Source of the DNA: a virus
Taxonomy: Duplodnaviria; Heunggongvirae; Uroviricota; Caudoviricetes
Reading direction: 5' to 3' (one strand)
DNA length: 51,994 nucleotides
Virus record (IMG/VR): IMGVR_UViG_3300045988_149344
This document shows positions 29,215 through 32,753 of the stretch, piece by piece. Position 1 is the first letter of the stretch. Each line of letters opens with the position of its first letter. The notes under the pieces were generated by a model. The model was given only the letters and a program-made list of their open reading frames with translations, did no database searches and was not told the origin of the DNA. A program made the translations under genes and the position numbers.

Positions 29215-29231
29215 ATTGCTCTAATAAATAT
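29215..29231 (+). promoter_or_regulatory. C1 operator (16/17) upstream of the dmt operon
   Basis: ATTGCTCTAATAAATAT in the divergent intergenic region. Confidence 0.6.
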
Positions 29232-29302
29232 TGTTTTTTATGTCGTGTTTTCGGTACCATTCAGCCGTCGCCCTTCAATGGGCATTTGTTTGGAGTCGTC
29301 AG

Positions 29303-29587
29303 ATGCAGATGGAGCTAATAAGCCGCAAGGAGTTCGATAGCCGTGTAACCAGCGGTGAACTCGACAACTTGCAGGCTATCAAGGTGAAAGAAGGCTTTTG
29401 CCTCATTGGGAATCAGAGCGGAACAAATCGCGTTTTTATGCTTCGCCGTACGGATTTGAAGCCATTTGTCTGGAAGAACGAAATTGGTCCCAGCTCATAC
29501 GCTCAAACGAGGGGGTGCCACAACCTGGCCTTTTTCTACAAAGACGAGCTTTCTGTGGTTGATATTCAAGGGTTACAACATGTTTAA
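29303..29587 (+). CDS. Small hypothetical protein (94 aa), first gene of the dmt operon
   Basis: ATG at 29303 with a GGAG ribosome binding site; overlaps the start of the rdgC homologue by 8 nt. Confidence 0.4.
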
Positions 29588-30485
29588 GCACTGGAAAAAC
29601 ATTACTATTTATAAACTTTCTCGTGAGGCGGATCTGACCGACTTAGAAGATAAAAAGAAAATGATCCTTTTCACGCCATGCGGTAGTCAGGATATGGCCA
29701 AGTTCGGTTTTGTATCTCCATTTGGTGATAATTCCGAAGTTATCGCTATGCATGGAAATGGTTTTATCCTTGTTGAAGCAAAGCGCGAAACAAAAATTCT
29801 TCCCCCGCCGGTTATCCAGCGAGCTATTCAAGAAAAAATTGAAAAACTTGAGCAAGAACAAGCGCGTAAACTGAAGAAAACAGAGAAGGACTCCCTGAAA
29901 GACGAAGTTCTGCATTCTCTTCTGCCACGGGCTTTTTCAAAGTTTTCTGTTATCCAGGCGATCTACGACGGTTCAACTAAACGTATCTATATCAATGCCA
30001 GCGCGCGGCAGGCAGAGGATATGCTCGCGCTTATGCGTAAGTCTCTGGGTTCTCTTCCTGTTGTTCCCCTGAGTGTTGAAAATCCCATTGAATTAACGCT
30101 GACCGACTGGGTACGTGATGGTAGTGCTCCACAGGGATTTCAAATGGGGGATGCGGCAGAACTTAAGGCAGTGCTTGAGGATGGCGGTATTGCCCGAGTG
30201 AAAAAGCAGGATTTGGGAAGCGATGAAATTTCCACACACCTGGAAGCTGGCAAGCTCGTTACTAAGTTGGCACTCGACTGGCAGAACCGCATTAAATTTA
30301 CACTGGACCATAACTTCAGCCTTACCAGCGTCAAATTTGCGGATGAATTGCTTGAGCAGAACTCTGATATTGATAGTGAAGATGTTGCGCAGCGACTGGA
30401 CGCAGATTTCTTCCTGTTGACCAGTGAAATTTCGTGCCTGGTTGATGCTCTGGTAAATGCCCTTGGTGGAGAGGCTAAGCAGTGA
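29580..30485 (+). CDS. hrdC: RdgC-like recombination-associated protein (301 aa)
   Basis: Start [13 protein letters not shown] and internal blocks ([52 protein letters not shown]) closely match E. coli RdgC as I recall it; P1 names its RdgC homologue hrdC. Confidence 0.8.
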
Positions 30486-32746
30486 AAGAGCTGTGCTATG
30501 GATCTGTTTGCAGTGGAATTGAAGCCGCGAGTATTGCCTGGGAACCGTTGGGTATGCGTCCGGCGTGGTTTGCTGAAATCGAGCCTTTTCCATCTGCCGT
30601 TCTTGCGCACCGCTGGCCCCATGTCGCCAACCTTGGCGACATGACAAAACTTGCCAAAAAAGTCCTGGCTGGGGAAATCGAATCCCCTGATGTGCTCGTC
30701 GGGGGTACGCCTTGTCAGGCATTCAGTATCGCGGGCTTACGTGGTGGGCTTGATGATGAACGCGGCGCGCTAACTTTGAAGTATGTGGAGCTTGCAAATG
30801 CAATTGACGACAAACGGTCTGAGTCCTTCCTCAAACCGACAGTTATCGTCTGGGAAAATGTCCCAGGAGTCCTGTCATCGGCAGATAACGCCTTCGGATG
30901 TTTCCTTGCCGGATTGGCTGGAGAAGATGCGCCATTTGAACCAGGTGATCGACCTGAATCAGGAAAAAGTAACGCGTTCTGGCGGTGGGATGGCAAAACC
31001 GGTTGCCATGCTCCAAAGTGGCCGCAGTGTGGTTGTATTTATGGACCGCAGCGAAAGGTGGCCTGGAGAATCCTTGATGCCCAATACTTCGGAGTGGCAC
31101 AACGACGCCGACGCGTGTTTGTTGTCGCAAGTGCTCGAACAGACCTCGATCCCGCAACGGTACTTTTTGAGTTCGAAGGCGTGCGTCGGAATATTGCGCC
31201 GAGCCGAAAAAAGAAGGAAATCGCTTCCGCCATTATTGCAAATGGCGCTGCAATCAGTGGCGAAAGCCTAAATCCATGCCTACACGCTGACATGCCACCC
31301 GGTATGAAATCGACGAAAGCCGTAAACGCTTTCAGGATGGCAGCATTTGGGGAATATATTGACGATGAAACCGCATCGACAGTAAAGGCAAGAGATTTTA
31401 AAGATGCCACTGACCTTGCCGTTTTTAGCAGCACAGGAGCAGGTTTTTGGTCAGAAGGGCATGGTACATTGCGGGCACGTGAGCAAGAAAGCCATGAGCA
31501 TCTTGTTACATTGGCTTTTCCTGAGCGTATGAGCGGTACACAACATGCTGCAACTAAGAATACTTCACCATCTCTAATGGCTAAAAATCCAACAGCTGTT
31601 TGCTATGAAGTAAGAAACGCAGAAGTAGCTGTCCGCCGTCTTACCCCTGTCGAATGTGAAAGGCTGCAAGGTTTTCCTGATGGGCATACGTTGATCCCGA
31701 CGGAAAAGCGTAAAAAAGTTAATTCAGATGAACTGGCATATCTTCGCAATCACTATCCAGATTTAAGCGAAGAAGAGGCCGCGATGCTTGCAGCTGACGG
31801 ACCGCGTTACAAAGCGATCGGCAATAGTATGGCAATACCAGTAATGCGCTGGATTGGCGATCGGATTACTAAGGCCGTATGTCGGCAGAAAGAAGGAAGT
31901 GAAACAAAAGAGCGAAAAGTTAAACCAGCGGCAGAATTCGAACGGTCCATATTCAAATGGGCTGGTGGAAAATTTGGTGTTCTGGAACAAATCTTTCGCT
32001 ATTTGCCAGAAGGGAAGCGCCTGATTGAGCCTTTCGTTGGTGGCGGAGCTGTCTTCATGAATGCCGGATACCAGGAAAATCTGCTAAATGATGTGAATGC
32101 TGACCTGATTAACTTTTACAAGACTCTGCAACGCGAGGCGCATTCACTTATCACTCTGGCACATCGTTTCTTCCAGGACTACAACACGCAGGAAGGATAC
32201 CTGGCAGTACGGAATGCGTTTAACAAACAAGTCTATGATGATTTACATCGCGCAGCGGCGTTTTTGTTCCTGAACCGACATTGTTTTAACGGATTGACGC
32301 GTTACAACCAAGCCGGTGAGTTCAATGTCGGTTATGGGAAGTATAAAACTCCGTATTTCCCATTGCAGGAGATGGAAGCCTTCCTTGGTGCGGAAGGGCG
32401 TTCTGAGTTTGTATGTGGTGATTTTGCTGCGGTGATTGAAGCTGCCGGAGAAGGAGATGTAATCTTTTGCGATCCGCCGTATGAACCGCTCCCAAATACA
32501 GAGGGATTCACGAACTATTCCGGTCATGACTTTAAGTTTGAAGAGCAAAAACGCCTGGCGTCTCTGTTGACGGATGCTCATCGCCGAGGTGCAAAGGTTC
32601 TCATTACTAACAGTGGCGCGCCAAACATCAGAGAACTTTATCAGGACAGTGGCTTCAGAGTGGAACCTCTTTTTGCCAGACGTTCTGTGTCTTGTAAGGG
32701 GGACACTCGAGGTGTTGCTCATGACGTTATAGCAATATTGCTCTAA
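30482..32746 (+). CDS. dmt: Bifunctional DNA methyltransferase: N-terminal C5-cytosine MTase-like, C-terminal Dam-like N6-adenine MTase (754 aa)
   Basis: GTG start overlapping the hrdC stop; PCQAFS and ENV motifs in the N-terminal half; FxGG plus DPPY motifs in the C-terminal half. Confidence 0.85.
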
Positions 32747-32753
32747 TAAATTT
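32737..32753 (+). promoter_or_regulatory. C1 operator, perfect 17/17 match, overlapping the dmt stop codon
   Basis: ATTGCTCTAATAAATTT; the TAA inside it is the dmt stop (32744-32746). Confidence 0.7.

Follow-up and report, generated by a model that had tools for sequence, protein, structure and literature searches.

The 51,994-nucleotide stretch of DNA analysed here (the window) is almost certainly a P1-like phage or plasmid prophage, and the region that we studied is its dmt operon with the ban operator and promoter downstream of it. Across this locus the window and phage P1 are 98.7% identical over 4.3 kb. Between positions 29100 and 32800 there are 35 base differences, 30 of which fall in dmt and are mostly synonymous in the Dam half of that gene. 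The P1 dmt operon has the same gene order, the same two gene overlaps, the same operator sequence and the same promoter hexamers as the window, and at the protein level P1 Uhr is identical, HrdC differs by one amino acid and Dmt by eight. The same locus was found in 688 plasmid records, mostly from E. coli, and the record that we inspected, CP088832, is IncY. We found no evidence contradicting the P1-type identification. The c1 gene does not lie within the window, from which the presence of the repressor cannot be confirmed.

We note that much of what the locus contains is already known. The GenBank records of P1 (AF234172 / NC_005856) and P7 (AF503408) list Odmt/Op68, Pdmt, uhr, hrdC, dmt, Obanab/Op72ab and Pban; the curators of these genomes had thus recorded the operon, its fusion enzyme, the RdgC homology and both operators some twenty years ago. 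The discovery value of the region is accordingly small, and the regulatory tests suggested by the initial annotation have largely been done already. For annotation purposes, the region may safely be marked as P1-type, and its downstream operator as bivalent.

The operators were located by a pattern search with the C1 operator consensus, a 17-bp asymmetric site, ATTGCTCTAATAAATTT, as quoted in PMC8546580, which reports this P1 consensus together with a count of 22 operators. With up to three mismatches allowed, the window holds nine matches as compared to 0.27 expected from shuffles. Positions below are those of the window, and features lie on the plus strand unless stated otherwise. The upstream site, Odmt (formerly Op68), is ATTGCTCTAATAAATAT at 29215-29231; it has one mismatch to the consensus and is identical to AF234172 65145-65161 of P1. 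It abuts the -35 hexamer of the promoter Pdmt (29231-29260; -35 TTGTTT at 29231-29236, -10 TACCAT at 29255-29260), the coordinates of which we transferred from the "sigma 70 promoter Pdmt" of P1 (65161-65190). In the Pdmt region the window departs from P1 at a single base, 29267, which belongs to neither hexamer. A simple consensus promoter scan gave no match at Pdmt, which fits the sigma-70 consensus poorly, and this suggests that Pdmt is a weak promoter.

Three genes follow, and as the initial annotation had stated from the open reading frames they are chained by overlapping stop and start codons, which the sequence bears out. The first, uhr (29303-29587, ATG to TAA, 94 amino acids), overlaps hrdC by eight nucleotides, ATGTTTAA; hrdC (29580-30485, ATG to TGA, 301 amino acids) overlaps dmt by the four nucleotides GTGA, in which the GTG start of dmt lies on the hrdC stop. 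A terminator scan found no convincing plus-strand terminator between 29215 and 32746, which argues for a single uhr-hrdC-dmt transcription unit. In P7 a late promoter, LPdam2, has been predicted inside dmt; the corresponding sequence of the window differs at two of the nine positions of the -22 box, a consensus that is itself poorly defined (one further example), and the P1 curators annotated no internal late promoter in dmt. The proposal that the three genes form a C1-controlled operon induced on derepression agrees with the curated P1 and P7 annotation, and dmt and ban were both shown by rt-qPCR to be induced upon thermal inactivation of C1.100 (PMC4713147). In P1vir transcriptomes all three genes follow a similar pattern (bioRxiv 10.64898/2025.12.28.696737). 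The arrangement also extends to a distant relative, Cronobacter phage JK004, in which an operator-like site lies 64 bp upstream of a uhr-hrdC-...-dmt block that retains the eight-nucleotide overlap.

HrdC belongs to the RdgC family: it matches Pfam RdgC (PF04381) at 5.6e-98 and 328.3 bits (cut-off 25) over profile positions 3-298 of 298, and it is of equal length to, and 62% identical over 299 residues with, E. coli RdgC (PDB 2OWL). It differs from P1 HrdC by a single amino acid (K236N). Unlike E. coli RdgC, HrdC is phage-borne, controlled by a repressor and confined in its expression to lytic growth. The literature searched yielded no biochemical or genetic test of HrdC; by its likeness to the crystallised E. 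coli protein, HrdC would bind DNA as a ring dimer and restrain RecA. Uhr is identical to its P1 counterpart. It matched no Pfam family and no PDB sequence below E=1, and a large-database search returned homologues only in P1-like elements. A Foldseek search of the PDB with its AlphaFold model (pLDDT 71) gave no match at E 0.001 or better, the top hits being small ribosomal proteins and the FtsH N-domain. We therefore reject the label "nucleoside triphosphate pyrophosphohydrolase" given to Uhr by PHROG and RefSeq (phrog_2213), as neither sequence nor fold similarity was found.

The third gene, dmt (30482-32746, GTG to TAA), encodes a polypeptide of 754 amino acids that joins a C5-cytosine methylase (approximately residues 1-470) to a Dam-type N6-adenine methylase (approximately residues 487-754). 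The N-terminal part matches PF00145 at 2.8e-36 and 126 bits, and the C-terminal part matches the D12/Dam family PF02086 at 1.5e-57 and 195.7 bits (cut-off 22 in both cases). The whole length of E. coli Dam (PDB 2G1P) aligns with the C-terminal 266 residues of Dmt at 1e-58, and stand-alone phage C5-cytosine methylases are 45-59% identical to its N-terminal 460-470 residues; as compared to these separate enzymes, Dmt carries both activities' domains in one chain. The fusion is rare: among 2106 matching records of a phage collection, 20 cover at least 80% of Dmt, and these comprise the P1 group together with Cronobacter phage JK004 and Citrobacter phage Omnitron. The Dam half carries the AdoMet motif FxGxG (EPFVGGGAV) and the catalytic DPPY (FCDPPYEP), and with Dmt of the window 98.8% identical to that of P1, this half is, to judge from its sequence, a GATC methylase, as the P1 GenBank note and PMC12707154 state for P1 Dmt. 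P1 requires dmt for the methylation of pac in dam- hosts (PMC12707154). Thus, of the double specificity that had been attributed to this enzyme, the adenine half stands, as GATC methylation has been shown for P1; the cytosine half is less secure, and the P1 curators went no further than "perhaps at C5 cytosine".

In the cytosine methylase half, the catalytic motifs IV (PCQ), VI (ENV), VIII (QxRxR) and X (GNS/GNA) are all present. Motif I reads VCSGIEAAS and retains only the first Gly of GxG, as compared to the canonical FxGxG; the same variant is kept in all aligned relatives, and it may be a form characteristic of the subfamily rather than a defect. We also observed that residue 74, within GGTPCQ, is Trp in two laboratory P1 c1.100 records, and Gly in the window and in all other relatives checked. 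No report of P1 cytosine methylation or of a Dmt intein was found in the literature searched.

One explanation is that the C5 half is an inactive relic, such that Dmt functions as a Dam enzyme only and "double specificity" is a misnomer. That GATC methylation alone has been demonstrated, and that the curators worded the cytosine activity so cautiously, would agree with this, as would CSGIEA in the place of the canonical motif I; the two laboratory P1 records with Trp at the conserved Gly74 moreover represent viable phages. We nevertheless regard a relic as doubtful. PCQ, ENV, QRRRR and GNS are intact in the window and in relatives down to approximately 57% identity, and stand-alone homologues of the C5 half are common in other phages (45-59% identity, as above). 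In C5 methylases the target-recognition domain lies between motifs VIII and IX, and it is the segment between these motifs that P1-type and P7-type alleles have exchanged, with their catalytic core conserved. Inteins are typically found at sites under strong functional constraint, and in RCS47 and OP279344 the catalytic Cys is the exact insertion point of an intein that carries a homing-endonuclease domain. We speculate, tentatively and as a possibility rather than an expectation, that in wild P1-type elements the C5 half is active, its specificity being determined by a target-recognition segment that can be swapped, and that this activity would have gone unnoticed because laboratory P1 c1.100 has Trp instead of Gly at position 74, four residues ahead of the catalytic cysteine.

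The end of dmt runs into the control region of the next unit. The claim that a perfect-consensus C1 operator lies over the dmt stop codon proved correct: Obana (Op72a), ATTGCTCTAATAAATTT at 32737-32753, matches with no mismatches, is the sole perfect match in the window and is identical to P1 68667-68683. The last dmt codons, ATA TTG CTC TAA (32735-32746), fall in this operator, so that three codons and the stop are covered. A second operator, Obanb (Op72b; 32748-32764, minus strand, two mismatches; P1 annotation 68678-68694), is inverted relative to the first and overlaps it by 6 bp, and the pair constitutes the bivalent operator Obanab. The initial annotation had missed both this bivalence, with its second, inverted site, and the ban promoter that lies within the operator. 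That promoter, P1ban (Pban), spans 32738-32766 (coordinates from P1 68668-68696), with its -35 hexamer TTGCTC inside Op72a, a 17-bp spacer and a -10 hexamer TAATAT that overlaps Op72b. In both P1 and P7, Obanab with Pban has the same 28-bp sequence and the same position across the dmt stop codon as in the window, and the P1 records label the operator sites "protein_bind: phage repressor C1". With the P1 annotation transferred onto identical sequence, the geometry is that of promoter occlusion: Op72a holds the -35 hexamer of P1ban, Op72b overlaps its -10 hexamer, and Op68 abuts the -35 hexamer of Pdmt.

The operator at the dmt stop codon was proposed to control a downstream tRNA/ban unit, a view with which the P1 and P7 annotation agrees and which is in keeping with the induction of ban after C1.100 inactivation (PMC4713147). 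The first genes of the Op72-controlled unit are tRNA-Asn (33422-33497) and tRNA-Thr (33500-33575), both found by ARAGORN and scoring 74.5 and 72.9 bits, respectively, against the Rfam tRNA family. A third tRNA, with a CAT anticodon (35576-35651; ARAGORN and Rfam), is annotated in P1 as trnI, tRNA-Ile2. The distal gene is ban (35938-37302, in an open reading frame of 35932-37302), encoding a DnaB-type replicative helicase, and its region is 99.75% identical to P1 70924-72957, within which ban occupies 71295-72659. These three tRNAs and ban lie downstream in the P1 and P7 ban operons as they do in the window. It is the cargo separating the tRNAs from ban that is not the same: in P1 it is tciA-tciB-tciC, whereas in the window it consists of a 78-amino-acid open reading frame and a 275-amino-acid SPFH/Band 7 protein, an allele that RCS47 and other P1-like phages also carry.

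Between Pban and the tRNAs, the terminator scan and an RNA fold of the leader located a GC hairpin followed by a run of seven T residues (32930-32957), approximately 165-190 nt downstream of Pban and at the end of the stretch that the P1 curators labelled "dicF-like". This hairpin is strong and terminator-like, and a fraction of Pban transcription may stop there, at about 32957, before reaching ban. The ban leader as a whole folds no better than shuffles (z = -1.68), and the hairpin alone stands out. A DicF small RNA in the leader, as the curators' label would imply, was rejected: there was no Rfam match at E<=1 over 28900-37500, nor at E<=10 over the 721 bases of 32700-33420.

Taken together, the arrangement suggests the following course of events. 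In the lysogen, C1 bound to the single Odmt/Op68 site at the upstream edge of Pdmt would keep the dmt unit silent, and C1 bound to the bivalent Op72a/Op72b, which spans the -35 and -10 hexamers of Pban, would do the same for the ban unit. Once C1 is inactivated, one transcript from Pdmt would be made, from which uhr, hrdC and dmt would be translated in series, presumably coupled through their eight-nucleotide and GTGA overlaps. Pban would fire simultaneously to yield the leader RNA, two tRNAs, the variable cargo, the third tRNA and the ban helicase gene, and some Pdmt transcription may read through into the same unit. The Dam domain of Dmt would methylate GATC, as needed for P1 pac cleavage in hosts without Dam; HrdC would act on recombination in the RdgC manner described above, and the C5 domain of Dmt would be catalytically competent.

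The pairing of an RdgC homologue with a methyltransferase had been read as coordinated protection and processing of newly replicated phage DNA, with HrdC acting in recombination, Dmt marking and protecting the DNA, and the operon forming a dedicated module. The three genes are indeed tightly overlapped and co-regulated, and the order uhr-hrdC-dmt recurs in JK004, a divergent P1-like phage in which Dmt is approximately 57% identical. In JK004, however, an unrelated gene of 191 amino acids lies between hrdC and dmt, and the RdgC homologues of four distant phages (AVIO78A, X29, LKA5 and vB_VpaP_1601) lie beside ssb, exonuclease or replication genes, and none of them has a methyltransferase as its neighbour. 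On this sample of four we reject RdgC-methyltransferase adjacency as a general phage theme; the hrdC/dmt pairing is confined to the P1 lineage. Moreover, CRISPRi knock-down of uhr, hrdC or dmt did not impair plating on wild-type E. coli (PMC10695390), and shared early-gene timing suffices to explain the linkage. The interpretation of coordinated action did not withstand these comparisons, and we consider joint action of HrdC and Dmt improbable.

It is similarly unlikely that Op72a overlaps the dmt stop codon as an adaptive device, for instance with C1 as a roadblock against leaky Pdmt transcription, or with the end of dmt translation tied to Pban: the overlap and the perfect operator are base-identical in P1, P7 and the window and no terminator lies between dmt and Pban, but the operator constrains three codons only (I-L-L), and in JK004 the dmt end (locus position 6505) is followed by a separate gene of 222 amino acids and the two operator-like sites lie far from dmt, approximately 720-760 bp past its end, directly upstream of a DnaB-like gene, and point the same way instead of being inverted. 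The lack of the overlap in JK004 implies that only closely related genomes share it, a pattern in keeping with simple genome compaction.

In view of the Gly74/Trp74 difference, cytosine methylation would better be tested with a wild-type allele such as that of the window than with that of laboratory P1. If our tentative suggestion is true, the standard P1 strain would serve poorly as a model of cytosine methylation by Dmt, and natural P1-like plasmid prophages would, upon induction, add a phage-specific 5-methylcytosine mark to DNA, possibly as an anti-restriction measure.

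Over the 4.3-kb stretch around the locus the window shares 98.7% identity with phage P1 (AF234172 / NC_005856), 99.0% with Escherichia phage JL22 and as much as 99.8% with E. coli plasmids about 91-108 kb in size, the best match being plasmid CP088832, which is typed IncY. Identity this high to P1, JL22 and E. coli plasmids indicates that the window is a P1-type phage or plasmid prophage. The locus is present in 688 plasmid records, and across it coordinates convert to those of P1 with zero indels (window coordinate = P1 coordinate - 35930). It is already known, and its features are on record in the curated P1 GenBank entry.

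Three plus-strand genes make up the locus: uhr (ATG 29303 to TAA 29587, 94 aa), encoding a small protein; hrdC (ATG 29580 to TGA 30485, 301 aa), encoding an RdgC homologue; and dmt (GTG 30482 to TAA 32746, 754 aa), encoding a two-domain methyltransferase. The first two overlap by ATGTTTAA and the last two by GTGA, and no convincing plus-strand terminator was found between 29215 and 32746. Upstream lies the C1 operator Odmt, formerly Op68 (ATTGCTCTAATAAATAT, 29215-29231, plus strand), with one mismatch to the 17-bp C1 consensus ATTGCTCTAATAAATTT; the last dmt codons, ATA TTG CTC TAA, fall within operator Op72a (32737-32753, plus strand), the sole perfect consensus match in the window. C1-type sites with three or fewer mismatches number nine in the window against 0.27 expected from shuffles. 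The initial annotation's sequence statements on the operators, the gene chain and its overlaps, the stop codon within the operator and the methyltransferase domains were all correct on re-check. It overlooked a second, inverted site, Op72b (32748-32764, minus strand, two mismatches), which overlaps Op72a by 6 bp; the downstream site at the end of dmt is evidently an operator pair, not a single operator. Odmt and this pair, Obanab (formerly Op72ab), are identical to P1 at every base. The pair doubles as a promoter: P1ban has its -35 box TTGCTC in Op72a and its -10 box TAATAT at 32761-32766, overlapping Op72b, with a 17-bp spacer.

Biochemical proof that Op68 controls the P1 dam methylase and Op72 controls ban reportedly came from the Schuster laboratory in the late 1980s. 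The P1 GenBank entry lists Odmt as a "monovalent C1-controlled operator" (former Op68) and Obanab as a "divalent C1-controlled operator" (former Op72ab) governing ban, with promoters P1ban and P2ban, while in the P7 entry Op(dam) is "predicted to control expression of upf64.0, hrdC and dam" and Op(ban) governs the tRNAs and onward. By rt-qPCR in a C1.100 lysogen, dmt and ban were among the C1-controlled genes induced upon heat inactivation of the repressor (PMC4713147); in P1vir transcriptomes dmt and hrdC behave alike and uhr shifts in the same direction (bioRxiv 10.64898/2025.12.28.696737). The proposal that C1 controls both the operon and the downstream tRNA/ban unit agrees with the P1 and P7 curation and with the published induction of dmt and ban; this regulatory reading is right, yet it was previously curated and has largely been tested in the literature. 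Plating on a wild-type host was unimpaired when CRISPRi targeted uhr, hrdC or one or the other dmt half (PMC10695390).

In a lysogen, C1 would sit on Op68, which borders the dmt promoter Pdmt on its upstream side, and on Op72ab over Pban. Derepression would then yield one transcript from Pdmt, on which the stop/start overlaps suggest coupled translation. Transcription from Pdmt should continue across Pban as well, so the two units may in part behave as a single long early unit. At 32930-32957, some 165-190 nt past Pban, a strong hairpin with a T7 run behind it ends the stretch labelled "dicF-like", so Pban may give a short leader transcript, about 185 nt long, the hairpin ending part of its output ahead of the tRNAs. 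The name "dicF-like region", given in the P1 annotation to the stretch at about 32861-32962 of the window, was not borne out: DicF went unmatched in Rfam even in a permissive search of 721 bases with E up to 10.

Further along, the window follows P1 up to and including tRNA-Asn and tRNA-Thr, and the match resumes from the CAT-anticodon tRNA through ban at 99.75% identity. Where P1 carries tciA-tciB-tciC, the window instead has a swapped segment (34470-35567) with a 78-aa ORF (34504-34740) and a 275-aa SPFH/Band 7 protein (34721-35548), a cargo allele that P1-like phages including RCS47 and Ro157c2YLVW have in common with it; another stretch of roughly 170 bp (33675-33842) is without counterpart in P1. 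At 34350-34470 on the plus strand there is a partial, sub-threshold match to Rfam STnc100, scoring 37.8 bits (E 1.6e-05) where the gathering score is 47, in a region that is antisense to the upl/plp genes or upstream of them.

A more distant comparison is offered by Cronobacter phage JK004, with a Dmt of about 57% identity, where the corresponding block, with its operator-like sites and a DnaB-like gene, lies at JK004 locus 2164-8705. There, the operator-like site ATTATTCTAATAAATTT lies 64 bp upstream of the uhr homologue and the uhr/hrdC overlap is 8 nt, identical in length to the P1-type; dmt ends about 720 bp ahead of two direct operator-like sites directly upstream of the DnaB-like gene, with a 222-aa gene in between and no tRNAs between dmt and the DnaB-like gene. 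Judging from this layout, C1-type control of both units is conserved in JK004 but the overlap of operator and stop codon is not. Conceivably, bound C1 acts as a roadblock at the dmt stop codon; our reading of the overlap is that the P1/P7 lineage has undergone compaction here.

HrdC is a full-length RdgC, differing from P1 HrdC at one residue. Because it shares 62% identity with E. coli RdgC across the whole length, we would expect it to bind DNA as a ring dimer and to restrain RecA as that protein does; no rdgC-complementation test or other experiment on HrdC was found in the literature. The uhr-hrdC-dmt block is conserved in the P1 lineage, and the initial annotation took the pairing of HrdC with Dmt to suggest coordinated protection and processing of newly replicated phage DNA. 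Such functional coupling finds little support: in four phages outside the P1 lineage, a small sample, the RdgC homologue (39-59% identity) sits amid ssb, exonuclease, integrase or replication genes, and in none of them does a methyltransferase gene adjoin it. In JK004 a 191-aa gene of unknown family separates hrdC and dmt. The simplest reading of the HrdC-Dmt linkage would be shared early timing, not a dedicated two-enzyme module.

The Uhr protein is identical to that of P1, and its homologues occur in P1-like elements only. It has neither a Pfam family nor a solved relative, a structure model (pLDDT 71) gave no informative fold resemblance, and the RefSeq/PHROG name "nucleoside triphosphate pyrophosphohydrolase" was without support in sequence or fold tests. 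In two database homologues, P0010 and P0015, a frameshift carries the reading on into hrdC.

Dmt, with eight residues different from P1 Dmt, joins an N-terminal C5-cytosine methylase to a C-terminal Dam-type domain. The Dam half, which has FxGxG and DPPY, can be aligned to E. coli Dam along 266 residues (1e-58); the cytosine half has PCQ, ENV, QRRRR and GNS, with motif I in the variant form CSGIEA. Coulby and Sternberg are said to have characterised the P1 dam gene. The P1 GenBank entry describes a "bifunctional DNA methyltransferase" acting on N6 of adenine in GATC and "perhaps at C5 cytosine". GATC methylation at pac is required for P1 packaging, so dmt is essential in dam- hosts (PMC12707154). 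Published tests of methylation cover adenine only. In P7 a late promoter dependent on Lpa, LPdam2, is predicted within dam, upstream of the Dam domain (P7 locus 2489-2507); in the counterpart stretch (window 31716-31734) the window and P1 differ at 2 of the 9 positions of its -22 box (AAGTTAATT against AAGTTTCTT), and the P1 entry annotates no late promoter inside dmt.

The small residue commonly found in motif IV is glycine. At Dmt codon 74 (window 30701-30703) it is present, as GGTPCQ, in the window, plasmid CP088832, P7, RCS47, OP279344 and JK004, and is replaced by Trp (VLVWGTPCQ) in the laboratory P1 c1.100 records AF234172 and AF234173; among IMG/VR contigs the Gly74 context occurs in 40 and the Trp74 codon context in 0. 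Laboratory P1 perhaps carries a defective cytosine-methylase domain. Dmt of RCS47 and OP279344 has a 341-residue insertion, absent from the window, exactly between GGTP and CQAFS (dmt at RCS47 locus 1501-4788 and OP279344 locus 1501-4542), which starts with Cys, ends with His-Asn before the catalytic Cys, and matches Pfam Hint_2 and LAGLIDADG_3. By these features it is an intein, equipped with a homing endonuclease and placed at the active-site cysteine; no prior report of a Dmt intein was found in the literature searched.

C5-methylases carry their target-recognition domain between motifs VIII and IX. In Dmt this segment (residues about 235-380, window about 31180-31620) has at least two unrelated forms, a P1 type in the window, P1 and RCS47 and a shorter P7 type in P7 and OP279344, with the catalytic core kept, which suggests different cytosine target specificities. 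A modest residual interest lies in the putative cytosine-methylase activity of Dmt and the Gly74/Trp74 difference. Taking this difference, the intein and the two segment forms together, we hypothesize that selection acts on the cytosine-methylase half in nature, and that laboratory P1 may be the wrong choice for detecting its activity.
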